Positions 2,542 through 17,687 of a DNA stretch of 35,589 nt are shown here, in pieces. The stretch's first letter is position 1. Each line of letters starts with the position of its first letter. A model generated the notes under the pieces. It worked only from the letters and a program-made list of their open reading frames with translations, had not been told where the DNA came from and searched no databases. This stretch comes from Candidatus Limnocylindria bacterium. Lineage in GTDB: Bacteria; Chloroflexota; Limnocylindria; QHBO01. The translations under genes and the position numbers were made by a program. Location: assembly GCA_039917955.1 (NCBI GenBank), contig JBDSIN010000143.1:1-35589 (forward strand), read 5' to 3'.

Positions 2542-2568
2542 CTCACGAAGGCCTCATCTCGTTCTCAG
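2542..2568 (+). promoter_or_regulatory. Phased CTCA box (site S1), upstream of the response-regulator operon
   Basis: CTCACgaaggcCTCATctcgttCTCAG, with repeat starts at 2542/2553/2564 (exact 11-nt period). Confidence 0.45.
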
Positions 2569-2697
2569 CATACGAGGCAAGAGTGGTTTGCCGGGGAATC
2601 GGTCGTCGCGTAAGGTCGTAAGTAGGGCGAAGCCCTACGATGGGCGCGTCATGAGCGACATGCCGGCCATGGGCAACTACGGGAGAACTCCACCGCC

Positions 2698-3378
2698 ATG
2701 AGTGAGGCCGCGCGCATCCTGGTCATCGACGACGATCCCAAGATCAGGGCGGTCGTGCGCCGCGGCCTGGCCTACGAGGGCTATCGCGTGGTCGAGGCGG
2801 GCAGCGGGGAGGAGGGGCTCGAGAAGGCCCGCGAGCATCTACCGGACCTGGTCGTCCTCGACATCATGCTGCCGGGCATGGACGGGTTGGAGGTCACGCG
2901 CCGACTGCGCTCTGCCGGTGACCAGGTCGCGATCCTGATGCTGACGGCGCGCGACCAGGTGACCGACCGGGTCGAGGGCTTGGAGACCGGCGCCGACGAC
3001 TACCTCGTCAAGCCGTTCAGCTTCGAGGAGCTTCTGGCCCGTGTCCATGCCCTGCTGCGGCGGCGAACCAGCCCCGCCGGCGAGACCCTGCGCTTCGCCG
3101 ACCTTGAGCTGGACGTCGACGCGCGCGAGGCACGCCGTGGCGCCCGCGTCGTCGAGTTGACCACCACCGAGTTCAACCTGCTCCTGCTGCTTCTGCGCCA
3201 CCCGCGCAAGGTGCTGACCCGCGACATCATCATGGAGCACGTATGGGCGTACGACTTCGACGGCGAGTCGAACGTACTGGAGGTATATGTTCGCTACCTG
3301 CGCAACAAGCTGGAAGCGAATGGCGAGTCCCGCCTGATCCAGACCGTCCGCGGGGCTGGCTACGTCCTCAAGGAGTGA
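2698..3378 (+). CDS. OmpR/PhoB-family response regulator
   Basis: Receiver domain (ILVIDDD...[13 protein letters not shown]...KPF) plus winged-helix output domain ([22 protein letters not shown]...VRGAGYVL). Confidence 0.95.
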
Positions 3379-4784
3379 TGCTCCTCCAGCGTCGGCGGCC
3401 AATCCGGACCCGGCTTGCGTTGATCTATGCCGGACTCCTTGCCGGCGCGCTCCTCGTCTTCGGCATTGGTGTCTTCGTCGTGCTGCGTGACGAGCTCGAG
3501 CGCTCGTTCGACGCCGCCCTGTTCGCGAATACGGAGCACGCCGCCGGCGCCTTCGCCCAGGATATCGACGCCGAGGGCCGCCTGAGCCCATCCGAGCGTC
3601 TCATCGAGCAGTTTGCCTCGACAGGCGGCCGCGTGCTGGTCCTTGATCTGGACGGCGGTGTGCTGGCCGATTCGGCGCCATCAGACTCCGGCAGGCTGCC
3701 ATTCACGCCCGACGACCTGGCCAGCGCCGACCACCACGCGCACGCGGTGCGCGAGCTCGCTGTCGACGATGACATCGTCCGGCTCTCCGTTGAGCCCGTG
3801 ATGCTCCCGAACGGGCAGGTCATCGGCTACGTGGCCTGGGCCGACTCGACGAGACCCTTGCGCGACCTGCTAGCGACTGTCGGCGGCGCGCTCGTAGTGG
3901 CCGGCCTGCTGGTGACCAGCCTGGCCATGATTGGCGGGCTCGCCCTCGCACGCCGCGCCCTGGCGCCGGTCGCCGACGTAACCGAGACGGCACGGGCGAT
4001 CTCGCTGTCGGGCGATTTCGCGGCTCGGGTCGACGCGGGCTCGCCGACAGACGAGGTTGGCGAGCTGGCAATTGCCTTCAACGAGATGCTCTCGGCGCTC
4101 GAGCAGAATCATCAGGCTCTGCAGCGCTTCCTCGGGGACGCGTCACACCAGTTGCGCACGCCGCTCACCACGATCCGAGCCAATTTGGACCTCGCGCAGC
4201 GGTCCGGGCTGCCGACGGAAGAGCGCCTCGCCATCCTCGCCGATGCCCGCGACGAGGCGGAACGGATGGGTCGCCTCGTCGGCGACCTTCTCTCGTTGGC
4301 CCGCGCTGAGTCCGGTGTACGGATCCGGGTTGAAGCGGTGGAACTCGACGCACTGCTGGTGGAGTCCGTCCGTCGACAGCGCGAGGCAGCCCCGCATGTG
4401 CGCATGAGCGTGGCCGCCGTTGAGCCTGCCATCGTCGACGGCGATCGCGACCGGCTGCACGAGCTGATCGGGATTCTTCTCGACAACGCGGCGCGCTACA
4501 CGCCGGCGGGAGGCAGCGTCGCGGTCAGACTCGCGGTGCGGGACGGGCGCGCGATCGTCCGGGTGGAAGACAGCGGCATCGGTCTCGACGAGCAGGACCG
4601 CGAGAGGGCCTTCGAGCGGTTGTACCGCGGATCGCGTGCTCGCGACCTGCGTCCGGGTGGCACGGGTCTGGGCCTGGCGATCGCACGCTGGATCGTTGAG
4701 TCACATGCCGGCACGATCGAGCTCACCGATCGCGAGGGCGGCGGAACGGTGGCGATCGTGACGCTGCCGATGCGTGCGTTGTGA
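3378..4784 (+). CDS. Sensor histidine kinase (2 TM, about 140-aa extracytoplasmic loop, HAMP, HisKA, HATPase_c)
   Basis: TGATG overlap with the regulator gene. H-box SHQLRTPLT, N-box LLDNAARYTP, G-boxes DSGIGL and GGTGLGLAI. The sensor loop contains DHHAHAV. Confidence 0.9.
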   Translation: MLLQRRRPIRTRLALIYAGLLAGALLVFGIGVFVVLRDELERSFDAALFANTEHAAGAFAQDIDAEGRLSPSERLIEQFASTGGRVLVLDLDGGVLADSAPSDSGRLPFTPDDLASADHHAHAVRELAVDDDIVRLSVEPVMLPNGQVIGYVAWADSTRPLRDLLATVGGALVVAGLLVTSLAMIGGLALARRALAPVADVTETARAISLSGDFAARVDAGSPTDEVGELAIAFNEMLSALEQNHQALQRFLGDASHQLRTPLTTIRANLDLAQRSGLPTEERLAILADARDEAERMGRLVGDLLSLARAESGVRIRVEAVELDALLVESVRRQREAAPHVRMSVAAVEPAIVDGDRDRLHELIGILLDNAARYTPAGGSVAVRLAVRDGRAIVRVEDSGIGLDEQDRERAFERLYRGSRARDLRPGGTGLGLAIARWIVESHAGTIELTDREGGGTVAIVTLPMRAL

Positions 4785-4847
4785 CCGCGACCCGTGTCCT
4801 GGTCGCCGACGACGAGGCGGCCACCGCAGTCGCGGCGTCAGCAATGT

Positions 4848-4874
4848 CTCAGGGAGCGCTCAGATCAGACTCAG
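4848..4874 (+). promoter_or_regulatory. Phased CTCAG box (site S2), upstream of the HMA-like/ABC operon
   Basis: CTCAGggagcgCTCAGatcagaCTCAG, three perfect pentamers at 4848/4859/4870. The ATG at 4897 is 27 nt from the third repeat start. Confidence 0.5.
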
Positions 4875-4896
4875 CCTCCGATATGACCCTGCTGGA

Positions 4897-5130
4897 ATGA
4901 ACGCCGGAAGCGCAGTCAGGATCCCCGTCCACGGCCTCGGTTGCGGTGGCGGCGGCGCGACGACGATCGAGCGCGAGCTGGCCCGTGCGGCCGGCGTTTT
5001 GCGGTCGTACGTCAACCCGGCCACCGAGACGGCGTACATCGAATACGACCCCGTCCAGACCGACGCCGGGCGCCTGGCGCAGGTTATCGAGCACGCGGGC
5101 TACCGACCCGGACCCGCGTCGGAGGCGTGA
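4897..5130 (+). CDS. HMA-fold (heavy-metal-associated-like) protein with degenerate metal loop
   Basis: Ferredoxin-like HMA pattern VRIPVHGLGCGGGGATTIERELARAAGVLRSYVNPATETAYIEYDP...VIEHAGY. The usual GMTCxxC loop is replaced by GLGCGGGG, leaving a single Cys. Confidence 0.7.
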   Translation: MNAGSAVRIPVHGLGCGGGGATTIERELARAAGVLRSYVNPATETAYIEYDPVQTDAGRLAQVIEHAGYRPGPASEA

Positions 5131-5133
5131 GCG

Positions 5134-6231
5134 GTGCTTCTGGCCCGCCGCAACCTGCTCCACGACCGAACCCGGTTCGCGCTGAGTGTCCTGGGTGTCG
5201 CCGTCTCGATCGGGCTCATCCTGCTGCTCTCCGGCTATCGTTCGGGCGTCTATCAACAGTCCTCCGCGTACCTCGACAATACGCCCGGCAGTGTGGTGGT
5301 GGCCGAGCGCGGAATCCGCGACTTTCTTGGGACGGCCTCAGTCCTGCCGCCGGGCGCGGAGCAGACCGCCCGCGAGCGCCCCGGTGTCGACGGCGTGATC
5401 CCGGTGGTGTCGCAGTTCGTCATCTTCGAGCGCCACGGCCGCAAGGACGGCTTCTTCCTGATCGGTTACGACCCCGCGGCGGGTGGCGGCCCGTGGCGAC
5501 TGGTCGACGGGCGCGAACCGGCCGCTGACGACGAGCTGGTCATCGACCGCACGACGGCCGCCCAGCACGAGATCGCCATCGGAGATCAGGTCCGGGTGCT
5601 GGACCGCGACGCGACCGTGGTCGGCCTATCGGATGAGACGACCTTCTGGGCCGGCTCGGTCGCCTTCGCCCGGATCACCACGCTCGAGTCGTTGCTGCGC
5701 GCTCCGGGCCTGCGCAGCTTCCTGCTTGTGAGCCCGGCCGCCGGGGTGAGCCCGGAAGCGCTCCGCGACCAGCTCGCCCTGCCGGGAACGGAGGTGCTCC
5801 TGAAGAGCGAGATCATCGCCAACGACCGGCAGTTGATGGCGCGGGTGTACGACGCGCCGATCGGGTTGATGGTTGGCATCGCCTTCCTCGTGGGAGTGCT
5901 GGTGGTGGGGCTCGTCATCTATACCGCCACCATCGAGCGACGGCGGGAGTACGGGGCGGTCAAGGCCATCGGCGCCAGCAACCGGACACTGTACCGGGTG
6001 GTGACCACGCAGGCGCTTATCGCGACGGTCGCCGGAGCGGTAGTCGGGGTAGGGCTGGCCTACGGCGGCGGTGCCGCGCTGATGACCTGGCGGCCGCAGT
6101 TCCTGGTGGCCATCGAGCCGGCCGCCGTCGGCGTCGTCCTGGGCAGCAGCCTGCTGATGGCGCTGCTGGCCGCCCTGATCCCGGCCCGGGCGATGGCCCG
6201 CCTGGAGCCGGCCGAGGTCTTCCGGGGATGA
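5134..6231 (+). CDS. FtsX/MacB-type ABC permease (half-transporter 1)
   Basis: N-terminal ARRNLLHDRTRFALSVLGVAVS helix, a large extracytoplasmic loop and a C-terminal FtsX bundle (ERRREYGAVKAIGASNRTLY). GTG lies 8 nt after GGAGG. Confidence 0.85.
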   Translation: MLLARRNLLHDRTRFALSVLGVAVSIGLILLLSGYRSGVYQQSSAYLDNTPGSVVVAERGIRDFLGTASVLPPGAEQTARERPGVDGVIPVVSQFVIFERHGRKDGFFLIGYDPAAGGGPWRLVDGREPAADDELVIDRTTAAQHEIAIGDQVRVLDRDATVVGLSDETTFWAGSVAFARITTLESLLRAPGLRSFLLVSPAAGVSPEALRDQLALPGTEVLLKSEIIANDRQLMARVYDAPIGLMVGIAFLVGVLVVGLVIYTATIERRREYGAVKAIGASNRTLYRVVTTQALIATVAGAVVGVGLAYGGGAALMTWRPQFLVAIEPAAVGVVLGSSLLMALLAALIPARAMARLEPAEVFRG

Positions 6232-7358
6232 GCGCAGCGTGGGTCCTGGCCCGTCGCAACCTGGCCGGCAACCGGGTCCGGCTGCTGGTCTCGGTCGGTA
6301 GCGTCGCCCTCGCCCTGTCGCTGACGATCGCGTTCGACGCGATCTTCGCCGGGGTCGCGAACCAGCTGACGAAATATGTCGATCGGGCCGGCGCGGACGT
6401 GTGGGTCGCCCAGGCCGGCGTGCGCAACCTCCACATGGTGGCCTCCTGGCTGCCCGCCTCGGTGACCGGTGCCGTCAATGCCGTCGACGGCGTGGCCGAA
6501 GTGACCCCCATCCTGTACTCGACCGATACCATCGCCGCCGGCAACGATCGAGCGGTCGCGTACGTCATCGGGCTGCCGGCCGACGCGGCCATGGGCATGC
6601 CGTGGAACGTCGTCGACGGAGCGGACCGACCAGGCCCCGGCGAGGTGATCGTCGACCGCGGCTTCGCCAGCAAGGCCGGCGTCTCCATCGGCGATGACGT
6701 CACCGTCCTCGGCGGCGAGGCGCGGGTGGTCGGCCTGTCGAGCGGAACGGCCAGCCTGGTGAACTCGGTGGCCTTCGTCTCGTTCGAGGACTTTCAGACC
6801 ATGCGCGGCGGCGCCCCGGTCGTGAGCTTCGTCCTGGTCAGGGTCGTTTCCGGCGCCTCGCCGCAGGAAGTCGCCGCCGAGATCGAGCGCGTGGTCCCGG
6901 GTGTGACCGCCCAGTCGCGCGCCGCCTTCGCGGTCGAGGAGCGGCGATTGGTGATGGACATGAGCGCCGACGTCATCGCCATCGTGAACGCCGTGGGCTT
7001 CGCCGTCGGGCTGGCCGTGGTGGCGCTGACCGTCTACGTCGCCACGCTCGCCCGCCGGCGTGAGTACGGTGCCCTCAAGGCGCTCGGCGCGCACAATCGC
7101 TTCCTGTACGGGGTGGTGCTGAGCCAGGCCGTCCTGAGCGTCGCGCTCGGCTTCGTCGTGGGCCTCGCCTTCACCGAACTGATCAGCCTGGCGATTGCAG
7201 GGACCGATCTCAATCTCGAACTTGCCATCAGTGCCCCGTCGCTCGCCAAGGTCGGACTGTTCGCGGCGGTCATCGCCGGTCTCGCCGCGATCCTGCCCAT
7301 CCGCCAGATAGCGAGTCTCGACCCGGCGGTCGTCTTCCGAAAAGGAGCCGCACTGTGA
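6228..7358 (+). CDS. FtsX/MacB-type ABC permease (half-transporter 2)
   Basis: ARRNLAGNRVRLLVSVGSVAL helix and RRREYGALKALGAHNRFLY motif. ATGA overlap upstream and GTGA overlap downstream. Confidence 0.85.
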   Translation: MSAAWVLARRNLAGNRVRLLVSVGSVALALSLTIAFDAIFAGVANQLTKYVDRAGADVWVAQAGVRNLHMVASWLPASVTGAVNAVDGVAEVTPILYSTDTIAAGNDRAVAYVIGLPADAAMGMPWNVVDGADRPGPGEVIVDRGFASKAGVSIGDDVTVLGGEARVVGLSSGTASLVNSVAFVSFEDFQTMRGGAPVVSFVLVRVVSGASPQEVAAEIERVVPGVTAQSRAAFAVEERRLVMDMSADVIAIVNAVGFAVGLAVVALTVYVATLARRREYGALKALGAHNRFLYGVVLSQAVLSVALGFVVGLAFTELISLAIAGTDLNLELAISAPSLAKVGLFAAVIAGLAAILPIRQIASLDPAVVFRKGAAL

Positions 7359-8251
7359 CAACTCTGACGCTCGACGTGCGCGACGTCACCAAGCGCTTCG
7401 GTGACGGCGAGACCGCGGTGACCGCCGTTCGTGGGGTCACCCTCGCCGTCGACCCGGGCGAGGTCGTCCTGATCATGGGTCCATCGGGCTCGGGCAAGAC
7501 GACACTGCTGTCGATGATGGGCGCTCTCCTGCGGCCGACATCCGGCTCGATCCACCTCGACGGGACCGAGATCAGCGCCCTCTCCGAGGCTCGCCTGCCC
7601 GCTATCCGGCTGCGTCAGTTCGGGTTCATCTTCCAGGACTTCAACCTGCTGTCGGCCCTGTCGGTCCGTGAGAACGTGGCACTCGTCGCCGAGCTGGCGG
7701 GCCTCAGCGGACGTGCGGCGCGGGACAAGGCAAGCGCGCTGCTTACCGAGCTGGGCCTCGGCGAGCGGCTCGACTTCCTGCCGGAGAAGCTGTCGGGTGG
7801 AGAGAAGCAGCGGGTGGCGATCGCCCGGGCGCTGATCAACGATCCGACGCTCATCCTGGCCGACGAGCCAACCGCCAACCTCGACTCAAAGATCGGGCAC
7901 GAGATCATGCGCCTGCTGCGGCGCATTGCCAAGGACCAGGGACGCAGCGTGGTCATCGTCAGCCACGACCAGCGCATCCGTGACATCGCCGACCGCGTGC
8001 TGTGGCTCGAGGATGGCGCCTTCAAGGACATGGTGACGATGGCCACCGACCCGGTGTGCGGCATGGCGGTCGAGCGCGAGCGGGTGGTCAGCGGGAGTCG
8101 GGACGGGGAGACCTACTTCTTCTGCTCGAACGGCTGTCGGGCCGAATTCCTCGCCGCCGATGGGCAGGGGCCGCGGAACTGGATCCGGGCGGCGTCCGCG
8201 CTCATCTCACGACACACCACTCCAACCGGTGGTCGCCGCGGTCGCGACTGA
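7355..8251 (+). CDS. ABC transporter ATP-binding protein (MacB/LolD-like) fused to a C-terminal YHS/TRASH metal-binding domain
   Basis: Walker A GPSGSGKTT, signature LSGGEKQRVAIARAL, Walker B LILADEPT. The C-terminal DPVCGMAVE...YFFCSNGCRAEF (about nt 8045-8155) matches the YHS pattern. Confidence 0.9.
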   Translation: MTTLTLDVRDVTKRFGDGETAVTAVRGVTLAVDPGEVVLIMGPSGSGKTTLLSMMGALLRPTSGSIHLDGTEISALSEARLPAIRLRQFGFIFQDFNLLSALSVRENVALVAELAGLSGRAARDKASALLTELGLGERLDFLPEKLSGGEKQRVAIARALINDPTLILADEPTANLDSKIGHEIMRLLRRIAKDQGRSVVIVSHDQRIRDIADRVLWLEDGAFKDMVTMATDPVCGMAVERERVVSGSRDGETYFFCSNGCRAEFLAADGQGPRNWIRAASALISRHTTPTGGRRGRD

Positions 8252-8359
8252 CCGAGCTCGCCGCCGGTTGCGGCGCGGATCCTCGCCATCGAGGCTGCGA
8301 GGGTCGGGAGGGACCTGAGAATCCCGGCCCGGACGGCTCCGGCTCGACCAGGTGCATGT

Positions 8360-8386
8360 CTCATCTACCACTCAGCCTGATCTCAG
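8360..8386 (+). promoter_or_regulatory. Phased CTCA box (site S3)
   Basis: CTCATctaccaCTCAGcctgatCTCAG, with repeat starts at 8360/8371/8382. It lies 58 nt upstream of the ATG at 8444. Confidence 0.45.
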
Positions 8387-8443
8387 GTTTCGCCACGACA
8401 GTCAACTCCAACGAAACGCCAACCAGTTACCTCGAGGTGGTCA

Positions 8444-8650
8444 ATGACACGAACCCTCCGACTCGCGCTGGCGACGGTCGCCCTCGTGGGCCTGCTCGTC
8501 GGGGCCAGCCCGGTTGCCGCCGCGGAAGACGGGGCCGCCTACGGCGCCCACGTCGCCCACCACGCGACGACCGAAGGCGGCTTCAGTGGCGCCTGCAACC
8601 CGGGCATGCACCGCGGTTTCTCCGACAGGGCGGTCTGTCCGGGCCACTGA
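8444..8650 (+). CDS. Small secreted His/Cys-containing protein (hypothetical)
   Basis: GAGGTGG SD element ends 3 nt before the ATG (3-nt spacer). Signal peptide LALATVALVGLLVGASPVAAA. The roughly 42-aa mature part, EDGAAYGAHVAHHATTEGGFSGACNPGMHRGFSDRAVCPGH, has 5 His and 2 Cys. Confidence 0.55.
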   Translation: MTRTLRLALATVALVGLLVGASPVAAAEDGAAYGAHVAHHATTEGGFSGACNPGMHRGFSDRAVCPGH

Positions 8651-8669
8651 GGCGACCTGCGGTGAGACG

Positions 8670-9311
8670 ATGATGACCTTCGGGAGTGGATCCTTCGGGG
8701 ACTGGATCATGATCCTTGTGCCCATCGCGCTCGTCGTCGGGGTCGTTCTGATCGCGCTCTGGGCGGTCCGGCTCCTGGGCGGGGGTGCCGAGGACGACGC
8801 GCTCCGTCAGCTCCGGGCCAGGTTCGCGCGGGGCGAGATCGAGGCGCCGCAGTTCGAAGAGATGCGACGGGCCCTCGAGGCGACGGACGGACCGCGAACG
8901 GGTCGAAGCGCCCTCGGCATCGTCGGACTCGTCCTCGTCGTGGGGGCCATCCTCCTCGGCACCGCCGCCGGCTGGGGTGGGACGACCGGGCCGGGCTGGG
9001 GCGGGATGATGGGACCCGGCGGGATGATGGGCTGGGGACCCGCCCCCACCGCCCCGGCGGGGACCTCCGTGCGCATGGCCGGGTCGCGGTTCGAGCCGGC
9101 GACGCTGACCATCGCCCCGGGCGCGACCGTACGCTGGTTCAACGACGACGCCCTGCCGCACACCGTCACCGCCTCCGACGGCTCGTGGGACTCGGGCAAC
9201 CTCTCGCCCGGAGGCTCCTACGAGCGTCGCTTCGACTCACCGGGCACGTACGCGTATCTCTGCCGCTACCACCCGGGCCAGGCCGGCTCGATCGAGGTTC
9301 GGGCGCCCTGA
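8670..9311 (+). CDS. TM-SHOCT-TM-Met/Gly-rich-cupredoxin fusion protein (type-1 copper site with putative axial Gln)
   Basis: SHOCT motif LRARFARGEIEAPQFEEMRRAL, Met/Gly tract GWGGMMGPGGMMGWG, and plastocyanin/amicyanin-like ligands PHTV...YLCRYHPGQ. Confidence 0.8.
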   Translation: MMTFGSGSFGDWIMILVPIALVVGVVLIALWAVRLLGGGAEDDALRQLRARFARGEIEAPQFEEMRRALEATDGPRTGRSALGIVGLVLVVGAILLGTAAGWGGTTGPGWGGMMGPGGMMGWGPAPTAPAGTSVRMAGSRFEPATLTIAPGATVRWFNDDALPHTVTASDGSWDSGNLSPGGSYERRFDSPGTYAYLCRYHPGQAGSIEVRAP

Positions 9312-9346
9312 CCAGGGGGCCGCGTTGAAGGGGCCAAACCCCACGC

Positions 9347-9373
9347 CTCACCTCGCTCCCACCTCGCTCTCAT
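9347..9373 (+). promoter_or_regulatory. Phased CTCA box (site S4), upstream of cytochrome b
   Basis: CTCACctcgctCCCACctcgctCTCAT, with repeat starts at 9347/9358/9369. The first two units form an 11-nt direct repeat. Confidence 0.4.
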
Positions 9374-9467
9374 CGGACGCTAAGGACGAGGGAGTCCGAT
9401 AACCGCGCACACGACAGCCCTTCGCCGAACACCCGACCGCAAAGGACGGCGGGGAAGGAGAACCTCC

Positions 9468-10556
9468 ATGGGTACCCACGGGGCCATCGGCCAGCGGCGA
9501 TCCTGGCATAGGGCATGGGAGGCGCTCGACGAGCGCCTCGGCCTCAGCGGGCTGGCCTATCCGGTGCCGGCCCACGCCAACGGCATCGGCTACATCCTGG
9601 GCGGTATCACCTTCTTCGGTTTCCTCATCCTGGCGGCGACCGGCATCTGGCTCTCCCAGTTCTACCACCCCACGCCGTCCTCGGCCCGCGAGAGCGTGGT
9701 CTACATCATGAACATGGCCCCGCTCGGCGACCTCGTCCGGGGCATCCACTTCTGGGTGGCCAATATCGTGATGGCCACCGTGCTGCTGCACATGGGCCGC
9801 GTCTTCGTGACGGGCTCCTACAAGCGGCCGCGCGAGGCGAACTGGCTCATTGGGCTCGGGCTGCTCGGGGTGACGCTGGGCCTGCTCTTCACTGGCACGG
9901 TCCTGAAATGGGACCAGGAGGCCTACGAGGCCCTCGCCCACAACGTCGAGATGGGCGACCTGCTCGGCGCCTTCGGCTTCTGGTTCTCGGCTGACTTCGC
10001 GGCCAGCCTGCCGATCCTGGGCAGGCTGTATATAGCCCACATCGCCATCCTGCCCGCGCTCGGGGTGCTGCTGCTGCTCGCCCATTTTCTCCTCGTCAAG
10101 CGCCACGGCATCTCGGCGCTGCCGGCGCAGGCTGACGCAGCGGTCGACGGCGGACCGATCCCGGCGAAGGGTGGATCGACGTTCACCGCCCACCTGGCGC
10201 GGATGGCGGGGTTCGGCCTGCTGATGCTCGCCGCGGCGACGATCGTGTCGCTCATCTGGCCGGCGGGCCTTGGACCGCGCCCCGTGCCGGGCGTTGAGGA
10301 GACGAAGCCGCCGTGGATGTTCCTGCCCTTCTATCCGCTCGAGGACTGGTTCGGGCTGATCGCCCTGTTCTGGGCCCCGGCGCTGCTGTTCGGCGGGCTG
10401 GCACTCGTGCCGTTCATCGACCGCAGCCCGTACCGCTCCCCCGCGCGGCGTCGAGTGTTCATCGCCATCGGCGCCATCGTGGCCATAGCGCTCACCGCGC
10501 TGGTGATGTACGCCCTGTTCACCGTGCCCCAGGCGCACATCCAGGAGGCGATGTGA
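9468..10556 (+). CDS. Cytochrome b (bc-complex type, fused N- and C-terminal domains)
   Basis: Two helix-embedded His pairs spaced about 14 residues apart (IHFWVANIVMATVLLHM and AHIAILPALGVLLLLAH). Conserved KWDQ and PPWMFLPFY motifs. GGAAGGAG SD element. Confidence 0.9.
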   Translation: MGTHGAIGQRRSWHRAWEALDERLGLSGLAYPVPAHANGIGYILGGITFFGFLILAATGIWLSQFYHPTPSSARESVVYIMNMAPLGDLVRGIHFWVANIVMATVLLHMGRVFVTGSYKRPREANWLIGLGLLGVTLGLLFTGTVLKWDQEAYEALAHNVEMGDLLGAFGFWFSADFAASLPILGRLYIAHIAILPALGVLLLLAHFLLVKRHGISALPAQADAAVDGGPIPAKGGSTFTAHLARMAGFGLLMLAAATIVSLIWPAGLGPRPVPGVEETKPPWMFLPFYPLEDWFGLIALFWAPALLFGGLALVPFIDRSPYRSPARRRVFIAIGAIVAIALTALVMYALFTVPQAHIQEAM

Positions 10557-10765
10557 TGGCCGCCGTGCTGTTCCGGCTCGCGTTGCTGGCGACCGGCCTG
10601 GGCGTGACGGAGATCGGTCTCGGCAACGCGCTGGCCGCAGGATCGCCGTGGGGCTGGGCGCTCGTCCTTTTCCTCGGGCTCCCGCTGATCGTCGCCGGCT
10701 CCGCGGGCTTCATGGTCACGCTTCTTGGCGGAAGCAAGCAGAAAGGCAGATCCACCGATGCGTAG
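10556..10765 (+). CDS. Small 2-TM membrane protein (hypothetical)
   Basis: TGATG coupling to the cytochrome b gene, with AGGAGG upstream. Hydrophobic sequence AAVLFRLALLATGLGV...WALVLFLGLPLIVAGSAGFMVTLLGG. Confidence 0.45.
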   Translation: MAAVLFRLALLATGLGVTEIGLGNALAAGSPWGWALVLFLGLPLIVAGSAGFMVTLLGGSKQKGRSTDA

Positions 10766-11282
10766 CTCCGTACCGTTTGGCATGGTGGCCGGGCTGTTGC
10801 TGGTGCTCGGCTCCGCCGCGACCGTGCTGGCCGACGGCAGCGGCGAGGAGGGGATCGGCGTCGAGCCGGCCAGCGTGACGGCTGGTGACACGGTCATCCT
10901 CGCCGGCAGCGGGCTGGAGCCCAACAACGAGCGGGTGATCGTCCTGGCCGGGCAGGATCTCGTCGTCGACTTTGGCACGGTCACCACCGACGCCGCGGGA
11001 ATGTTCCAGACCGAGCTGACCATTCCCAGCCACCTCCCATCCGGGGTCTACGAGTTCCGCGCCATCGGCGACGAGATCCTCACCGCGCCGCTGGCGGTCA
11101 CCGCCGCGGCTGGTGGGGCGGGGTCGTCACCGGTTCCAAACGACCTCAGCAACACCGTCGTGCCTCGCGAGCGAACGGCGATCGAGTTCGGCGTGGTCCT
11201 CGCCCTCGCCGCCGCCGCCGCCCTCGCGGGCGCATTCCTGGTCTGGCGCGCGGAGGGTCGGCGGAGCACGTCAGCCACGTGA
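10758..11282 (+). CDS. Secreted beta-sandwich (Ig-like) protein with C-terminal TM anchor (hypothetical)
   Basis: Signal peptide MRSSVPFGMVAGLLLVLGSAATVLA and C-terminal helix FGVVLALAAAAALAGAFLVW followed by RAEGRR. Overlaps the previous stop. Confidence 0.6.
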   Translation: MRSSVPFGMVAGLLLVLGSAATVLADGSGEEGIGVEPASVTAGDTVILAGSGLEPNNERVIVLAGQDLVVDFGTVTTDAAGMFQTELTIPSHLPSGVYEFRAIGDEILTAPLAVTAAAGGAGSSPVPNDLSNTVVPRERTAIEFGVVLALAAAAALAGAFLVWRAEGRRSTSAT

Positions 11283-11327
11283 GCCGGGGGTGCTGCTCGT
11301 GCGGCCCGGCGGCATCCTGGCCGGCCT

Positions 11328-11354
11328 CTCAGCGTGCTCTCAGGCAATGCTCAC
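11328..11354 (+). promoter_or_regulatory. Phased CTCAG box (site S5), upstream of the CsoR-like operon
   Basis: CTCAGcgtgctCTCAGgcaatgCTCAC, with repeat starts at 11328/11339/11350. It lies 55 nt upstream of the ATG at 11409. Confidence 0.45.
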
Positions 11355-11408
11355 GGCCGATTCACCCGCAACCTGCACCGTTTCAGCGGCAAGGGAGGAT
11401 TGGTCCGC

Positions 11409-11756
11409 ATGAGCATGTCAGCCGGTGATCGAGGGGGTGCTGTTCGGCACGCCCAGCGAGCAGCCGGCCAGGCCTCCGCCGTCGCCACCATGATCGCGGG
11501 CAGCCGGCCATTCGCCGACGTGGCGCAGCAGCTGCTCGCCGCACGTGGATCGCTCGACTCACTGCTCGTGCGCCTTGTCGAACTCGAACTTGAGGGTTGC
11601 GTCCCGAACCCCACGGCGCGCAGGGAGGTGCACGAATTGCTGCACTCCGCGAGGGGGCGGGCGGGACACAGCCGGCACGCGGCTCGCTCGCGGATCGGCC
11701 GGCCGCCGGAGGAGGCGGAACCGCCACGTGTCTTGGAAGGAAGGACATCTTCATGA
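11409..11756 (+). CDS. CsoR/RcnR-family (DUF156) transcriptional repressor, non-canonical ligand set
   Basis: Helical pattern AQRAAGQASAVATMIAGSRPFADVAQQLLAARGSLDSLLVRLVELELEGCV aligns by eye to the CsoR core. The first Cys is replaced by F and the His by E. Confidence 0.65.
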   Translation: MSMSAGDRGGAVRHAQRAAGQASAVATMIAGSRPFADVAQQLLAARGSLDSLLVRLVELELEGCVPNPTARREVHELLHSARGRAGHSRHAARSRIGRPPEEAEPPRVLEGRTSS

Positions 11757-12244
11757 CTCGTCGAGCTCAGACGGGACGCATCCAGCGGCATTCTCCAATG
11801 CCGGCTGACTCTCGATCGATGGCATCGGCCGTGCCGCGTTCGGTCCGGTTGGGCGCATTTGCGGCGCTGGCGCTGGTCGTGGGCGGTGTCGCCATCGCTC
11901 TCGTGGTGAGCCGCCTCCAGGGACCCGCCGCGACCGATACCACTGCCATCAGCGTTCGGGCAAGCATGGGTGGCTTCGATCCCTCGGCGCTCATCGTCAA
12001 GCCGGGTGAGACGGTTCGGATCGAGCTCACCAGCCTCGACACGGCGTTCCACAGCGACGGTGGCGGCTGGCATCAGTTTGCGATCGACGAGCTCGGCGTT
12101 GACTGGAAGGTCGGGCCGCAGACCAGCGAGGTCTTCGAGCTCATTGCCCCTACCGCGCCGGGGACCTATAGCTGGTACTGCGATATCTGCTGCGGCGGCA
12201 AGGAGAACCCGTCGATGCGCGGCACGCTGACCGTGGCGGCGTGA
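11753..12244 (+). CDS. Membrane-anchored cupredoxin-like protein with YCDICCGGKENPSMRG motif (paralog of 1099-1572)
   Basis: ATGA coupling to the CsoR-like gene. TM helix LGAFAALALVVGGVAIALVV. Shared blocks SMGGFDP, DEL, PGTYSWYCDICCGGKE, GTLTVAA. Confidence 0.75.
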   Translation: MTRRAQTGRIQRHSPMPADSRSMASAVPRSVRLGAFAALALVVGGVAIALVVSRLQGPAATDTTAISVRASMGGFDPSALIVKPGETVRIELTSLDTAFHSDGGGWHQFAIDELGVDWKVGPQTSEVFELIAPTAPGTYSWYCDICCGGKENPSMRGTLTVAA

Positions 12245-13113
12245 TGGGCGCCGCGACCGGGCAGCCGCGCGCTCGCCCGCGGCTGCTTATCCTCGTCGTC
12301 GGTGCGGTTGTGGCCGCCGCCGCCGCCGCTGTCCTGGTCCCGGGACCGGCGCCCGCGGGCCACGAGGCCCTGGCCGACCTGAGCCTGCCGGCCATCATCG
12401 GCGCCGGGGTGCTCGATGGCTTCAACCCCTGCGCCTTCGGGGTCCTCATCCTGTTTGCGACCTTTGCGCTGGGGCTGGCGGCACGCCAGTCGCTCGCCGC
12501 CGGCGCTGGTGCTCCCGGCGCTGGTGCTCCAGACGTACGGGGGGCTAGCCGCACCGTGCTCGGACTGGGGTCATTCTTCGTCCTCGGCGTGCTGGCCACC
12601 TACTTCCTGCTCGGCCTGGGCCTCCTGACCGTGCTCTCCTCGCTGACCGACTTCGGTGGCAACCATCTGCCGAGCCGAGTTGCGGCCCTCGTCGCGGTCG
12701 GGCTCGGGCTGTGGATGCTTCGCGACGTGCTCCTGCCCGATGCGCGCTGGAAGCTGGAGGCTCCCCACGCGCTCCACGGCCGCATGCGCGACTGGGCGCG
12801 GTCGAGCTCACCGGTGGCGCTCTTCGGCGGCGGCGTCCTGATCGGACTCTGCACGGTCCCGTGCAGCGGGGCGGTCTACCTCGGCGTGGTGGCGCTCCTG
12901 GGAGTCAGCGGCACGTTCTCGGCGGGCCTCGGCGGCCTCGCCCTCTACAACCTGGCCTACATCACGCCGCTGGTCGGCCTGCTGGTGCTGGCCAGCCGAC
13001 CGGGCCTGATCCGGGTCATCAATCGCTGGCACCTGGAGCACGCGGAGGGCACCAGGCTGCTCCTGGCGATCGTGGTCCTCGCGCTCGGGTTCGCGATTCT
13101 ACTGACGGTATAG
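12241..13113 (+). CDS. CcdA/DsbD-family transmembrane protein (paralog of 1574-2449)
   Basis: GTGATG overlap with the upstream stop. Motifs LDGFNPCAF and LCTVPCSGAVYL. Confidence 0.8.
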   Translation: MMGAATGQPRARPRLLILVVGAVVAAAAAAVLVPGPAPAGHEALADLSLPAIIGAGVLDGFNPCAFGVLILFATFALGLAARQSLAAGAGAPGAGAPDVRGASRTVLGLGSFFVLGVLATYFLLGLGLLTVLSSLTDFGGNHLPSRVAALVAVGLGLWMLRDVLLPDARWKLEAPHALHGRMRDWARSSSPVALFGGGVLIGLCTVPCSGAVYLGVVALLGVSGTFSAGLGGLALYNLAYITPLVGLLVLASRPGLIRVINRWHLEHAEGTRLLLAIVVLALGFAILLTV

Positions 13114-13130
13114 AGGTGGCCGGTCGGGTT

Positions 13131-13168
13131 CTCAGCGCGCCGTTACCCGCTCCTCATCGCGGCCTCAG
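13131..13168 (+). promoter_or_regulatory. Phased CTCA box (site S6), upstream of the lgt-copA operon
   Basis: CTCAGcgcgccGTTACccgctcCTCATcgcggcCTCAG, with units at 13131/13142 (degenerate)/13153/13164. The ATG at 13191 is 27 nt from the last repeat start, the same spacing as S2. Confidence 0.45.
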
Positions 13169-13190
13169 GTTGAGCCGCTGGAATTGCGGC

Positions 13191-13382
13191 ATGCCGGACC
13201 TGCTCGCCACCGTCCTCATCGTCGTCGCCATCCTGCTCGTTGCCGACCTGCTTCTCGCGGGCGGCGCGATGACGATGACGGGCGTGTCGGCCATGATGGG
13301 CGCCTTCGGCCATCCGCTCGCGGCCGCCGCGCTCGTTGTTCTGGTCGTGGCGCTCATCCTGGTACTCGGGAGTCCGGGGTAG
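13191..13382 (+). CDS. Small 2-TM membrane protein (hypothetical)
   Basis: MPDLLATVLIVVAILLVADLLLAGG...AAAALVVLVVALILVLG. High GC at third codon positions. The stop lies 2 nt before the next ATG. Confidence 0.45.
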   Translation: MPDLLATVLIVVAILLVADLLLAGGAMTMTGVSAMMGAFGHPLAAAALVVLVVALILVLGSPG

Positions 13383-13384
13383 CC

Positions 13385-13915
13385 ATGCTTGAGCACGCGG
13401 TCCGGGCACGGCTCGACCCCGATGGTCTGCACCAGGTCGTGGAGGTCGCGGTTCGCGGTGGCTACCGACCCAGCACCATCCTGGCGCGCGCCGGGGTGCC
13501 CCTGCGCATCGTCTTCCGGCGCAACGATGACGACGTCTGCTCGGAGCGCGTCATCTTTTCAAAGCCGCGCGTCGATCGCCACCTGGCGCCGTCCGGTGCC
13601 ACTGCCGTCGAGCTGCCCGCGCAGCCGCCCGGCGAGATCCGCTTCACCTGCGGCATGGGCCGCTACCGCGGCCGCATCGCCGTCGTCGACGAGAGTCGGA
13701 CATCGCTGGCGGGCCGGCTGCACGAGCAGGTATCGCGGCTCGAGGCCGCACTCGGCACCAGGATCGTCCTGTTGCTCTGTTCGCTCCCGCTGATTGCCGT
13801 GCTCACGCTCGTGTTCATCGATGCGAAGGCGGCCATCGCCTTCGCCGCCGCCGCGCTGGCCGCCTGGGTAGCCGGCTGTCTCTGGGCACTCCGCGCCTCT
13901 GCGCCGTCGAGGTAG
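13385..13915 (+). CDS. Cupredoxin_1-domain protein with C-terminal TM anchors
   Basis: GGYRPSTILARAGVPLRIVFRRNDDDVCSERVIF...IRFTCGMGRYRGRIAVV parallels 17304-17687. No N-terminal signal peptide. Two C-terminal hydrophobic helices. Confidence 0.7.
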   Translation: MLEHAVRARLDPDGLHQVVEVAVRGGYRPSTILARAGVPLRIVFRRNDDDVCSERVIFSKPRVDRHLAPSGATAVELPAQPPGEIRFTCGMGRYRGRIAVVDESRTSLAGRLHEQVSRLEAALGTRIVLLLCSLPLIAVLTLVFIDAKAAIAFAAAALAAWVAGCLWALRASAPSR

Positions 13916-13923
13916 GGGAGAGC

Positions 13924-14745
13924 GTGCCGTTCGTCATCGACATCGACCCGATCGCCTTCTCGGTGCTCGGCCTTCACGTGCGGTGGTACGGGATCATCGT
14001 CGCCGGCGCGGCCGCGGTCGCAGTGTGGTTGACCATGCGTGAGGCGCGTCGCCGCGGCATCGGTTCGGAAACGGTCTCAGATGCCGCGATTTGGGCGGCG
14101 GTGGCAGCGCTCGTCGGTGGGCGAGCGCTGTACGTTGCCCAGAACGAGCTCGGCACGCTGGGCGAGGATCCAGCGCACCTGTTCATGGTCTGGAACGGCG
14201 GTCTCTCCTTCTACGGCGGGTTGCTCGGCGCCCTGCTCGCCCTGCTCGTCTTCGCCCGGCGGAGCGGAATCGCCCTTCTGCCACTGCTGGACGTGGCCGC
14301 GCCGGCCGCGGCGATCGGCCAGGCCATCGGGCACATCGGCTGCCTGATCGGCGGCGACTCGTATGGGATCCCCACCGACCTGCCCTGGGCGGTCGTCTAT
14401 CGAAACGTGGATGCCATGGCGCCGGTTGGCGTGCCGCTGCACCCCACGCAGGCGTACGAGGCGGTCCTGCTGGCCGCACTGTTCGCCGGGCTCTGGCTCG
14501 GCCGCGAGCGCCTGGCGCGGATCGGGGAGGGGGCGGTCGCCGCCACCTACCTTGTCGGCCTGGCCGGCATCCGCTTCGGGCTCTTCTATCTGCGCGACGA
14601 GCCCAGCGTGCTCCTGGGGCTCAAGACCGCCCAGCTGATGGGACTCGGGATTGCGCTCCTGGCGATCGTCCTCTTCGTCGCCGCGCGCCGGCAGACGCGC
14701 TCCACTCCCATCGCCCATGCACAGCTGGAGGCCATTCGACCATGA
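13924..14745 (+). CDS. lgt: Prolipoprotein diacylglyceryl transferase
   Basis: RWYGIIVA, WNGGLSFYGGLLGALLA, GHIGCLIGGDSYG and HPTQAYEA. GTG start after GGGGAG. Confidence 0.9.
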   Translation: MPFVIDIDPIAFSVLGLHVRWYGIIVAGAAAVAVWLTMREARRRGIGSETVSDAAIWAAVAALVGGRALYVAQNELGTLGEDPAHLFMVWNGGLSFYGGLLGALLALLVFARRSGIALLPLLDVAAPAAAIGQAIGHIGCLIGGDSYGIPTDLPWAVVYRNVDAMAPVGVPLHPTQAYEAVLLAALFAGLWLGRERLARIGEGAVAATYLVGLAGIRFGLFYLRDEPSVLLGLKTAQLMGLGIALLAIVLFVAARRQTRSTPIAHAQLEAIRP

Positions 14746-15203
14746 CAACCCACGTTCACGACCCCTCGATCGAGGCTCCTGACGGCGGCGGCAGCAGTTC
14801 CGCAGCCATCAGGCGACCTGACCCGGCCATCGCTCGACCGCGATGGCTCCTGCCCGCCCTCGCGGCCGTTGTGGTGGCCACGGGCCTGGTCGTCGCCGGC
14901 GTCGTCTCGGCTTCGACCGTGCTCTCGGTTGCGCTGTTCGGCGGTATGCTGCTGATGCATCTCGGGGGTCACGGCCACGGCGGGCATGGCGGGCATGGCG
15001 GGCATGGAGAGGCCGGACCCGGAGGCCACGGCGGGCACGACGAGCGAGGGGTAGTCCGCGACGAGGATCTCAGCGGGGGCTCAGGTGGCTCTCAGTCTGC
15101 GCGGCCAGGCTTCAATGACGGGCCCGATGACCGAGCCTCGGAGGATCAGAACCGCAACGAGACAACCGACCGTGACCAGCACCCTTCACACACCTGCCAC
15201 TGA
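14742..15203 (+). CDS. DUF2933-like His-rich membrane protein
   Basis: ATGA coupling to lgt. Two TM helices, then [30 protein letters not shown]. The 3' tail overlaps site S7 and the copA 5' end. Confidence 0.6.
15069..15095 (+). promoter_or_regulatory. Phased CTCAG box (site S7), immediately upstream of copA
   Basis: CTCAGcgggggCTCAGgtggctCTCAG, three perfect pentamers at 15069/15080/15091. Candidate copA ATGs at 15115 and 15127. Confidence 0.5.
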
Positions 15204-17307
15204 TTCCGCCGCGACCACGAGCGGCCACCACGGGGCCGCGGCCACGCATCACCCGGCGGCCGTGACTGCCCCTGCGGGCTCGCCGGCGCACGACCGCCAC
15301 GCCGAGTACCGCACGCTGATGCGCAAGTGGTGGTTCGGCGCGGCGGTCGGCGTGCCAACCATGATCCTCTCCTACCCGTGGCTCTTCCCCGGGCTGCGGG
15401 ACGCCTTCCCGCGCGGAGGCGTTGCCCTGTGGTGGCTGTGGGTCGCCATGGGCATCGCTTCGCTGGCCGTGCTGGTCTACTCGGGCGGCCAGTTCTTTAC
15501 CGGGGCCTGGGAGGCGCTCAGGCACCGCTCCGCGAATATGCACACCCTGATCGCGATCGGCACCGGAACGGCCTGGCTCTACTCGACCGTGGCCCTGCTG
15601 CTCCCGCAACTCTTCCCATCGGCCGAGATGACCGATGTCTACTACGACGTGACCGTCGTTGTCACCGCCCTGGTCGGGCTCGGCATGGCCATGGAGGTGA
15701 AGGCCCGCGGCCGGACCAGCCAGGCAATCGAGAAGTTGATCGGCCTGGCGCCCAAGATGGCACGCGTCGTCCGCGACGGGGTCGAGCTCGAGGTCCCCGT
15801 CGAGGAGGTTGTGGTCGGAGACACGGTCGTTGTGCGCCCCGGGGCGAAGATCCCGGTCGACGGCGTCATCACCGACGGGGTGTCGGCGGTCGACGAGTCG
15901 ATGATCACCGGCGAGTCGATGCCGGTCGAGAAGCGAGCCGGCGACGAGGTCATCGGAGCCACCATCAACAAGACCGGCGCCTTCCGCTTCAGGGCCACCA
16001 AGGTCGGGGCGGACACGACGCTGGCTACGATCGTGCGCATGGTCGGCGACGCGCAGGCCTCAAAGGTGCCGATCCAGCGCATCGTGGACGTCGTCTCGGG
16101 CTACTTCACGCCCGCGGTGATGATCCTCGCCGTGGCTGGCTTCGTGATCTGGTACGACTTCGGCCCGGCTCCGGCCTTCGCCTACGCCACCATCGTGGCG
16201 GTCACCAGCCTGATCATTGCCTGCCCCTGTGCCCTGGGCATGGCCACGCCCATGGCGCTGACCACCGGCGTCGGTCTGGCAGCTTCCAACGGGATCCTGA
16301 TCCGTTCCGGTGACGCCCTCCAGGCGGCCAAGCGGATCGACACCATCGTCCTCGACAAGACCGGCACCATCACCCTCGGCAAGCCCGCCGTGACCGATGT
16401 CGTCGTGGCAGACGGCTTCGAGGCCGATGCCCTGCTGGCCCTGGCGGCGGCCGCGGAGCGCGACTCCGAGCACCCGCTGGCGGCGGCGATCGTGGAAAGT
16501 GCGGCCGAGCGCGGCTTCGCCAGGCTCGAGCCGACGAGCTTCGAGGCCGTCCCCGGGTACGGTATCCGGGCGCTTCTCGGCGAGCAGCGGGTACTGGTTG
16601 GCAAGCGTGCCTTCCTGGAGGCCGAGGAGATCTCCGTTGGCGCCCTCGAGGAGGACGCATCCCGCCTGGCCGACGAGGGCAAGACGCCGGTATTCGTCGC
16701 AGTCGACGGCCGAGCCGCGGGGGTGGTTGCCATTGCCGATCCGGTGAAGCCGGACTCCCGAGGGGCGATCGCCGCCCTTCGCCGCCTTGGCCTCCAAGTC
16801 GTGATGATCACGGGCGACAACCACCGCACCGCGGACGCCATCGCGCGCCAGGTCGGGGTCGACCGGGTGCTGGCAGAAGTCCTGCCTGTAGACAAGGCTT
16901 ACGAGGTCCGCAAGCTCCAGCTCGAGGGCCGGACCGTGGCCATGGTCGGCGACGGCATCAACGACGCCCCAGCGCTGGCGCAGGCCGACGTCGGCTTCGC
17001 GATCGGCACCGGCACCGATGTCGCCATCGAGGCCTCGGATATCACCCTGATCTCCGGCAGCCTCCACGGCGTGGTCTCGGCGATCGCCATCAGTCGCGCC
17101 ACGATGCGCAACGTCTACCAGAACCTGTTCGGCGCCTTCGCTTACAACAGCCTCGGGCTGCCGGTGGCGCTCGGCGTCCTCTATCCGTTCATCGGGCTCC
17201 TGCTCAGCCCGCTCCTGGCCGCGCTGGCCATGAGCTTCAGCTCGGTGACTGTCATCTCGAATGCCAATCGGCTCAAGCACTTCAAGCTCGTGGAGGTGGC
17301 GGCATGA
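15115..17307 (+). CDS. copA: Cu(I)-translocating P1B-1-type ATPase lacking an N-terminal HMA domain
   Basis: [44 protein letters not shown] and MSFSS. The N-terminus is His-rich ([13 protein letters not shown]...HDRH) and has no GMTCxxC. Start is uncertain (15085 GTG, 15115 ATG or 15127 ATG). Confidence 0.9.
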
Positions 17308-17687
17308 CGCCCGATCAGATCCTCGTTACCCTCGGCGGCCTCGCCGCCATCGGCTTCATCGCTTGGTTCTTCTGGCTGAAGCGGACACCCGGCGTGAAGG
17401 CGTCCGTCGTCTCGGACGGTTACCAGGAGCAGATGATCCTGGTCAAGGGCGGCTATACCCCGGACACCATCCGGGTCTCCGCTGGCCGCCCGGTGCGACT
17501 CCTCTTCCGCCGCGAGGAGACGGCGGCCTGCTCCGAGCAGGTCGTCCTCGCCGACTTCGGCAAGTCGGCCGCGCTGCCGACCGGGCAGGTGGTGCCGATC
17601 GAGTTCATGCCGGGCGAGCCCGGCACCCACGAGTTCACCTGCCAGATGGGCATGCTGCGCGGCCAGATCGTGGTGGAGGCAGCGTGA
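17304..17687 (+). CDS. Membrane-anchored Cupredoxin_1-domain protein
   Basis: ATGA coupling to copA. N-terminal TM helix, then [34 protein letters not shown]...[17 protein letters not shown]. Confidence 0.8.

Follow-up and report, generated by a model that had tools for sequence, protein, structure and literature searches.

Phased CTCAG repeats as probable operators of an MprA/CssR-type response regulator in a copper island of a Chloroflexota bacterium

The 35,589-nt contig JBDSIN010000143.1 (assembly GCA_039917955.1) of a Candidatus Limnocylindria bacterium (Chloroflexota), called the window below, carries an island of copper-handling genes in which seven arrays of CTCAG-like pentamers are found, repeated every 11 nt on the plus strand. 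These boxes are very probably the operators of the response regulator encoded next to the first array (2698-3378), a protein assigned to the MprA/CssR clade from pairwise identity and helix pattern. Four independent lines agree on this reading of the sequence: the co-occurrence of boxes and regulator in related loci, a motif-agnostic scan of regulator-homologue loci, the half-site found at the mprA, pepD and htrB promoters, and the identity and helix pattern of the regulator itself.

Box arrays in the window

The window (69% G+C) was scanned for CTCA words on both strands. Exact CTCA-N7-CTCA-N7-CTCA triples start at 2542, 4848, 8360, 11328 and 15069, all of them on the plus strand, and are present nowhere else in the 35.6 kb. 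Not one such triple arose in 300 dinucleotide-preserving shuffles of the window. CTCA pairs spaced 11 nt number 11-12 in the window vs a shuffle mean of 0.9, and the histogram of pair distances shows 7 pairs at 22 nt and about none at distances other than 11 and 22. A sequence-only reading of this DNA had listed seven sites, each with three pentamers starting exactly 11 nt apart. All seven are in the sequence at the coordinates given. Five are the exact triples, and the sites at 9347 (CTCAC/CCCAC/CTCAT/CTAAG) and 13131 (CTCAG/GTTAC/CTCAT/CTCAG) are degenerate. Extra fourth units in register are GTCAG at 4837, upstream of its triple, TTCAC at 11361 and CTAAG at 9380.

A weight matrix was trained on arrays from other loci only, its null being the maxima over 200 shuffled windows (mean 6.8, 95th percentile 11.9, highest 17.3 bits). 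The top seven matches of this matrix in the window are the seven sites, with scores falling from 38.9 to 8.0 bits in the order S3, S7, S2, S1, S5, S4 and S6. Five sites are individually significant, and no site of any strength lies past 15.1 kb. The shuffles and this ranking bear out the expectation that in-phase triples should be rare by chance. Two faint echoes on the minus strand appear in relaxed scans because CTCAG is almost equal to its own reverse complement, CTGAG. An Rfam search of the island found no RNA family, and none overlaps the sites.

The sites are listed below with the -10-like hexamers described under Promoter geometry and the transcription starts predicted from them; all are on the plus strand.

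S1, 2542..2568, +, CTCAC/CTCAT/CTCAG in 11-nt phase, 26.4 bits, upstream of the regulator-kinase operon; -10-like AAGAGT at 2579-2584, predicted start about 2591, with a 107-nt leader to ATG 2698
S2, 4837..4874, +, GTCAG/CTCAG/CTCAG/CTCAG, 30.1 bits, kept before the HMA gene in orthologous loci; -10-like GACCCT at 4885-4890, ATG 4897 of the HMA gene coinciding with the predicted start (leaderless)
S3, 8360..8386, +, CTCAT/CTCAG/CTCAG, 38.9 bits, the best of the window; -10-like GACAGT at 8397-8402, predicted start about 8409
S4, 9347..9384, +, CTCAC/CCCAC/CTCAT/CTAAG, degenerate and borderline, 11.8 bits; -10-like TCCGAT at 9395-9400, predicted start about 9407
S5, 11328..11365, +, CTCAG/CTCAG/CTCAC/TTCAC, 17.8 bits; -10-like CACCGT at 11376-11381, predicted start about 11388
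S6, 13131..13168, +, CTCAG/GTTAC/CTCAT/CTCAG, weak, 8.0 bits, with fitting geometry; -10-like TGGAAT at 13179-13184, ATG 13191 at last box +27 and at the predicted start
S7, 15069..15095, +, CTCAG three times, 35.7 bits, within the 3' part of ORF 14742-15203; -10-like CAGGCT at 15106-15111, predicted start about 15118

It had been proposed that each array precedes a different operon. The arrays do lie in gaps before units, with the exception of S7, inside ORF 14742-15203. The placing of that site in the 3' tail of the ORF was right; the DUF2933 label attached to the ORF finds no support in Pfam, which offers only a sub-threshold DUF3040 match.

Arrays in orthologous loci

Metagenomes were searched with the sensor half of the kinase, which gave 19 orthologous loci (61-98% identity; numbered L081-L099) and 49 unrelated loci that served as control. 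An array was defined as at least three CTCA boxes with at most one mismatch in 12, and spacings of 10, 11 and 12 were compared. The 124.8 kb of orthologous-sensor loci hold 30 arrays at spacing 11 and none at 10 or 12, vs a single array in the 511 kb of control loci. A composite matrix of three boxes plus the -10-like hexamer has no match at all in the 511 kb. This enrichment, together with the MprA/CssR half-site, speaks for the earlier proposal that the boxes are sites of an OmpR/PhoB-type regulator that define a regulon.

Six of these loci (L082, L085, L087, L093, L095, L097) have an array before the regulator gene. As S1 also precedes its own regulator operon, the predicted autoregulation gains support. 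Arrays precede the HMA-FtsX-FtsX-ABC/YHS operon in L081, L090, L092, L095, L097 and L098, and others stand before genes for 57-58-aa YHS proteins, a multicopper oxidase, an MMPL transporter, a lipoprotein of about 150 aa and a 71-aa protein. The non-redundant set from the window and L081-L099 comprises 31 arrays, of which 18 have three units and 13 have four. Among their 106 units the core is C96 T101 C100 A106, the fifth position is G64/T24/C18, and the spacers look random. Orthologous promoters keep the boxes though spacers and flanks have diverged.

Regulator orthologues form more than 120 clusters at 84-98% identity, all from metagenomes or metagenome-assembled genomes (MAGs). The only organism names on them are Chloroflexi bacterium and Candidatus Limnocylindrales bacterium, and the JGI pipeline labels them MprA. 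On these names the host probably belongs to the Chloroflexota and not, as the 69% G+C might suggest, to the actinobacteria. The exact regulator protein also occurs in the NCBI MAGs GCA_031403795.1 and GCA_031389305.1. In named MAGs (L155-L157) arrays precede a multicopper oxidase-regulator-kinase operon, HMA/ABC genes, YHS genes and small genes of no assigned family.

The regulator and the MprA/CssR box

Both domains of the OmpR/PhoB family are found in the regulator by Pfam (PF00072, 116.8 bits; PF00486, 95.9 bits), and the closest solved structures are PrrA, PhoP and MtrA of Mycobacterium tuberculosis. It scores under the cutoffs of all NCBIfam equivalogs. Its identity is 55.7% with MprA and 54.8% with CssR, vs 60.8% between those two, and the helix pattern N-x-L-x-VYV-x-YLR-x-K is common to the three proteins.

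A motif-agnostic scan was made of 80 genome loci of regulator homologues (42-61% identity), taken from the matches listed in a GTDB scan. CTCA was the sole 4-mer to recur there in triples of 11-nt phase, doing so close to the regulator gene in 10 of the 80 listed loci, most of them from Streptomyces; the runner-up word reached 2.

The mprA-mprB-pepD loci of three mycobacteria (L152-L154) carry T-CTCAG-gcc-N3-T-CTCAG-gcg before mprA and T-CTCAG-tggaa-T-CTCAG before pepD, that is, TCTCAGG-type repeats 3 nt apart, followed at +15 by an nAnnnT hexamer (GACACT, GAAACT, CAACCT, CAAGGT, CACTGT). In these 13-kb loci exact CTCA pairs at 11 nt occur at the mprA and pepD sites only (two in L152, two in L153, one in L154); the pepD site of L154 reads CTAAG/CTCAG. 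The MprA box is said to consist of two 8-bp direct repeats 3 nt apart in the mprA and pepD promoters. We infer that this box is the same element as the boxes of the window, beyond the analogy that had been drawn between them, a view to which the compared sequences point. A literature search yielded no quotable account of an MprA box or MprA motif sequence, of CTCAG in connection with copper, or of TTTTCACA, a putative repeat of Bacillus subtilis CssR. Another Mycobacterium locus, L079, was considered as mprAB and turned out to be a different locus.

A second in-frame GTG is conserved in the three mycobacteria at +27/+28 from the last of the boxes that precede mprA (L152:6310-6345, L153:5968-6003, L154:5969-6003). 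Its position suggests that the mprA mRNA may be leaderless and start two codons inside the annotated ORF (M-R-I-L-V-V-D-D).

In loci of about 10 Streptomyces species (L010-L013, L015, L017, L019-L021, L026; for instance L015:8241-8292 and L020:8589-8640) the arrangement CTCAG-N6-CTCAG-N6-CTCAT, nAnnnT and an ATG at +27/+28 is found before the gene of an HtrA-type protease, the first in an operon of protease, regulator and kinase. The published S. lividans primers htrB_Fw2 and CssRpromFW match these loci exactly, and they are therefore htrB-cssRS. Phosphorylated CssR has been reported to shift a 237-bp PhtrB fragment in electrophoretic mobility shift assays (EMSA) in S. lividans; the matching region of L020, about 8461-8683, contains the boxes at 8589-8615. 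According to a paper of December 2025, the 'CssR regulon remains undefined', and no CssR operator is defined in the literature.

A conserved TTTATAT[CG] precedes the Streptomyces htrB boxes by about 33 nt and matches the published CutR site in reverse complement. The CutR motif TAWATAAA was considered as the box and set aside as a distinct element at that distance.

Two- or three-box sites with a well-placed -10 also lie by regulator homologues at L023:9962, L025:9960 and 12287, L039:9370 and L044:7129. Their hosts are Nonomuraea, an Actinomycetota MAG, a Saccharibacteria MAG (TACAAT as -10, ATG at about +27) and an Anaerolineae MAG. In a two-box scan, leaderless-looking sites stand right before the regulator genes in the first three of these hosts. 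With sites in Nonomuraea, Saccharibacteria and Anaerolineae, the promoter type therefore spans several phyla.

Promoter geometry

Counted from the first base of the last box, an nAnnnT hexamer begins at exactly +15 in 30 of the 31 arrays; every other offset from 8 to 23 shows it in none or one. On the same count 13 of the 31 have an ATG at +27 or +28, and in L155 an independent gene caller set the HMA start at precisely +27. If the -10 occupies +15 to +20, transcription would start at about +27, and from this geometry the start sites of all arrays can be predicted. Genes with an ATG at +27/+28 would thus be leaderless, and the boxes would start at about -27, -38, -49 and -60. The sequence-only reading had noted that the ATG lies 27 nt from the last box at two sites (4870 to 4897 and 13164 to 13191) and had proposed very short or leaderless 5' untranslated regions. 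Both distances are correct, and the wider set and the L155 gene call agree with the proposal. The ATG at 13191 opens a 63-aa hydrophobic ORF that is neither the cupredoxin nor the lgt gene.

No -35-like hexamer is present, and a sigma-70 consensus scan found no -35/-10 promoter before any operon. PhoB-activated promoters leave about 10 bp between the proximal repeat and the -10, the repeats standing in for a -35 (class II arrangement). The arrays agree with this, their proximal core likewise ending 10 bp short of the -10-like hexamer.

The kinase sensor and its signal

The partner kinase (3378-4784) aligns with MprB and CssS over the HAMP domain and catalytic core only (34-37% identity), its sensor showing no similarity to theirs, whereas the alignment of MprB with CssS spans both proteins in full. 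Only about 20 homologues of the sensor are detectable, all in Chloroflexota-type MAGs. The AlphaFold2 model of the sensor (pLDDT 86.8) has a PDC/Cache-type fold whose closest relatives are the WalK, KinD and CitA sensors, and the zinc sensor CzcS gives a weak match. The sensor lacks Cys, and its H54 and H120 hardly vary among orthologues. The heavy-metal models of NCBIfam, TIGR01387 and TIGR01386, are missed by the regulator (239.6 vs a cutoff of 279.2 bits) and by the kinase (201.3 vs 292.55 bits).

Judged from the genes under control and from the sensor, extracytoplasmic copper or damage caused by copper is a plausible signal. Direct sensing of the metal by the kinase seems slightly better than an even bet.

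Proposed mechanism and points against it

According to the model that we favour, the kinase would phosphorylate the regulator, whose molecules would then line one face of the helix in head-to-tail order, on an array of three or four units of 11 bp with the consensus T-CTCA-G-N6. The proximal unit would start 27 nt upstream of the transcription start, its core ending 10 bp before nAnnnT, so that the array would replace the -35 and the bound regulator would recruit RNA polymerase in the manner of PhoB (class II activation). At about 40% of such promoters transcription would begin at the A of the ATG and yield a leaderless mRNA. The seven promoters, five strong and two weak, would switch on the regulator operon and six copper-handling units: the HMA/ABC exporter; the His-rich protein and SHOCT-cupredoxin; cytochrome b; the CsoR-like, cupredoxin and DsbD-like genes; the peptide, cupredoxin and Lgt genes; and CopA with its cupredoxin. 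Extracytoplasmic copper or copper damage would be the likely trigger, acting on the PDC-type domain of the kinase, which has no relation to the sensors of MprB and CssS.

Several observations weigh against this reading. The -10-like hexamer is [CG]AnnnT, with C or G first in 28 of the 31 arrays and T in two, unlike TAnnnT, which may reflect an extended contact or the use of a non-housekeeping sigma factor. Site 9347 is borderline, and 13131 is not significant alone. In most orthologous loci (L083, L087-L097, L155-L157; for instance L095:5844-7621) a second regulator-kinase pair, about 44%/37% identical, comes right after the first and could play a part. The extent and specificity of the regulon are judged from relatives viewed within +/-10 kb of the regulator. 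The identification of the mycobacterial repeats with the published MprA box is drawn from their sequence and from the description of that box given above. The S. lividans study proposed, from low-resolution footprinting, a tentative CssR motif C(C/G)AGCT(G/T)CG with 348 genome matches. On the side of the signal, the fold search with the sensor returned generic PDC/Cache domains and no specific metal-sensor match. The DHHAHAV cluster noted earlier in the sensor loop is present, but orthologues keep it only in part, so that copper sensing through it has little support.

Alternative explanations

It may be that the kinase reports envelope or secretion stress, such as copper-induced misfolding or mis-oxidation of exported proteins, and not copper itself, with the DNA side of the model unchanged. 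The regulator belongs to the MprA/CssR envelope-stress clade, and MprB has been described as sensing unfolded extracytoplasmic proteins through DnaK. The partial conservation of the His cluster fits as well, as does a cargo that includes Lgt, DsbD-like proteins and many exported cupredoxins. However, the sensor has no detectable similarity to those of MprB and CssS and lacks the two Cys of CssS, and no trypsin-like or HtrA-type protease gene was found in the window or the orthologous loci. Besides, H54 and H120 are nearly invariant in a fold that is also used by metal-sensing kinases, among them the weakly matching CzcS. On balance we regard stress sensing as rather unlikely.

If the boxes are indeed operators, activation of promoters devoid of a -35 is much more likely than repression. 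A bound repressor on an array at about -49 to -23 could block RNA polymerase until a signal releases it, and the arrays do overlap the place where a -35 would lie. Members of the family can repress; CutR, for instance, is reported to be an activator or a repressor depending on the position of its site. Nevertheless, promoters with no recognisable -35 and a weak -10 ([CG]AnnnT) should need an activator, the core ends at the distance from the -10 that PhoB-activated promoters have, and MprA and CssR, with the same box, have been reported to activate mprA/pepD/sigE and htrB. Repression is thus an improbable account.

More improbable still is that the boxes are read by some other factor, namely the second regulator of the related loci, the CsoR-like protein or an alternative sigma factor. 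The second pair in most orthologous loci, the CsoR-like gene within the island and the atypical -10-like hexamer give this idea its footing. Against it, the window and L081 (98-99% identical) keep the boxes without a second pair, the kinase gene being followed by the S2 array and the HMA gene, and the recognition helix of the second regulator differs. Proteins of the CsoR family have GC-rich inverted repeats as their sites and do not bind direct ones. A row of three or four direct repeats in phase is unlike a sigma-factor signature, and the same box is found with MprA and CssR, which have no such partners.

High G+C DNA, short pentamers and the near-palindrome CTCAG/CTGAG, which inflates relaxed matches, could suggest a compositional accident or remnants of a repeated mobile element, a notion made negligible by the shuffles, by strict 11-nt spacing on a single strand at intergenic positions, by conservation at orthologous promoters amid diverged flanks, and by the lack of any Rfam family over the sites.

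Comparison with known systems

The system of the window, read as a regulator with phased operators, has a close counterpart in MprAB of M. tuberculosis. Both have an OmpR-type regulator with a similar recognition helix, TCTCAG-type 11-bp repeats, nAnnnT at +15 and autoregulation, which is predicted for the window. They differ in the number of boxes per promoter (two in mycobacteria vs three or four in the window), in the unrelated kinase sensor and in the linkage of an HtrA/PepD-type protease, which is present in L152-L154 and in the Streptomyces loci, but not in the window or its orthologous loci. The cargo of the window is copper handling instead of sigma factors and proteases, and the host is a member of the Chloroflexota.

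The CssRS system of Streptomyces shares three phased boxes (CTCAG/CTCAG/CTCAT), nAnnnT at +15 and an ATG at +27/+28 before htrB, the boxes lying in the region that matches the EMSA-positive S. lividans fragment. However, the CssS sensor has two conserved Cys and aligns with MprB, and the cargo consists of HtrA proteases.

The pho box of Escherichia coli PhoB and the PHO boxes of Streptomyces PhoP are likewise 11-bp tandem repeats in the place of the -35, with a variable number of units. Their half-sites are CTGTCAT or GTTCACC vs TCTCAG, and their signal is different. PhoB is a family-level relative only, since the regulator reaches 223.9 bits with the PhoB model vs a cutoff of 296.2. CusRS/CopRS of Proteobacteria and CopRS of Corynebacterium glutamicum resemble the window system in having an OmpR-type regulator and a membrane kinase by copper export and oxidase genes, and in an autoregulated regulon for copper resistance, which for the window is a prediction. 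Neither the CusR operator nor that of C. glutamicum CopR occurs in the window, where the best matches have at least 8/20 and at least 6/18 mismatches.

An OmpR/PhoB-type regulator with phased direct-repeat operators is thus of a kind already known, and the half-site is that of MprA. What is new is the seven-promoter copper island, the exchanged sensor, the three- or four-unit operators and the different host phylum, as well as the conservation of a complete promoter cassette across phyla. A bolder reading links three statements: that in Chloroflexota an MprA/CssR branch exchanged its sensor for a His-bearing PDC domain and turned into a dedicated copper system, running the entire island through one operator type; that the TCTCAG cassette, without a -35 and often leaderless, is ancient across Actinomycetota, Chloroflexota and Saccharibacteria; and that the CssR operator is CTCAG three times at htrB, and not C(C/G)AGCT(G/T)CG. 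We give the three together a little less than an even chance.

For a Chloroflexota lineage (Limnocylindria-like) that is abundant in the environment and has not been cultured, the analysis draws up a concrete scheme of copper control that can be tested, in which a single regulator would act through one type of operator on no fewer than seven promoters, several of them with transcripts predicted to be leaderless. It also suggests that an MprA-type operator and its promoter geometry have been kept far beyond mycobacteria while sensor and cargo were exchanged, a case of modular two-component rewiring. A predicted operator of Streptomyces CssR is obtained as a by-product, and the composite matrix is specific enough to annotate the regulon in metagenomes.

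Genes of the island

The gene map given by the sequence-only reading was upheld by Pfam. The genes are the following, all on the plus strand.

2698..3378, +, response regulator of OmpR/PhoB type, MprA/CssR clade (Pfam Response_reg and Trans_reg_C)
3378..4784, +, histidine kinase with transmembrane (TM) helix, extracytoplasmic PDC-like sensor of about 140 aa at residues about 36-175, TM helix, HAMP, HisKA and HATPase (Pfam, translation, AlphaFold2)
4897-5130, +, HMA chaperone (Pfam; synteny in orthologous loci)
5134-6231 and 6228-7358, +, two FtsX/MacB permeases (Pfam; synteny)
7355-8251, +, ABC ATPase with C-terminal YHS domain (Pfam; synteny)
8444-8650, +, small secreted His-rich protein (translation)
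8670-9311, +, SHOCT-cupredoxin membrane protein (Pfam SHOCT, Copper-bind, Cupredoxin_1)
9468-10556, +, cytochrome b (Pfam; cytb orthologue after the ABC operon in L095)
about 10758-11282, +, secreted protein of no assigned family
11409-11756, +, CsoR-like protein (Pfam Trns_repr_metal, 37.8 bits)
about 11753-12244, +, cupredoxin (Pfam)
12241-13113, +, DsbD/CcdA-like membrane protein (Pfam; paralogue of 1562-2449)
13191-13382, +, 63-aa Met/His-rich membrane peptide (translation)
13385-13915, +, cupredoxin (Pfam)
13924-14745, +, Lgt (Pfam)
14742-15203, +, membrane protein with one helix and a His/Gly-rich tail (translation)
15115 or 15127 to 17307, +, CopA-type P1B ATPase (Pfam E1-E2_ATPase, Hydrolase)
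17304-17687, +, cupredoxin (Pfam Cupredoxin_1)

ORF 14742-15203 starts on the stop codon of lgt (ATGA), reads through S7 and overlaps the start of copA by about 80 nt. The CsoR-like protein may not be a copper sensor, because two ligands of the canonical Cu(I) site, its first Cys and its His, look missing by eye. The paralogous membrane proteins 1562-2449 and 12241-13113 are 41% identical, and an orthologue of the first has a weak DsbD_TM match; both may act in thiol-disulfide exchange or cytochrome maturation within the island. A megablast search of PLSDB with the island gave only distant copA matches and no related island.

Two small proteins without a Pfam family recur in the orthologous loci. 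One is the lipoprotein of about 150 aa (TSEGGQVTV...LDTHSVDLD...KGGHH; L084:2360-2812, L089, L090, L092, L095:8754-9206), whose gene is predicted from the geometry of its array to give a leaderless transcript. The other has about 71 aa (DVRSRALAxWPxLDRxKLxRTCGDP; L084:3495, L095:9855, L098:1302).

A second copper cluster (17304-23675; 17.3-23.7 kb) contains cupredoxins at 17304, 19686 and 20616 (the last on the minus strand), an Lgt-domain fusion (18464-19696) and a P-type ATPase on the minus strand (21306-23675). It has no CTCAG arrays and is therefore controlled otherwise. About 10 kb past the copper genes lies a tRNA gene (33863-33935; Rfam, 66.9 bits).

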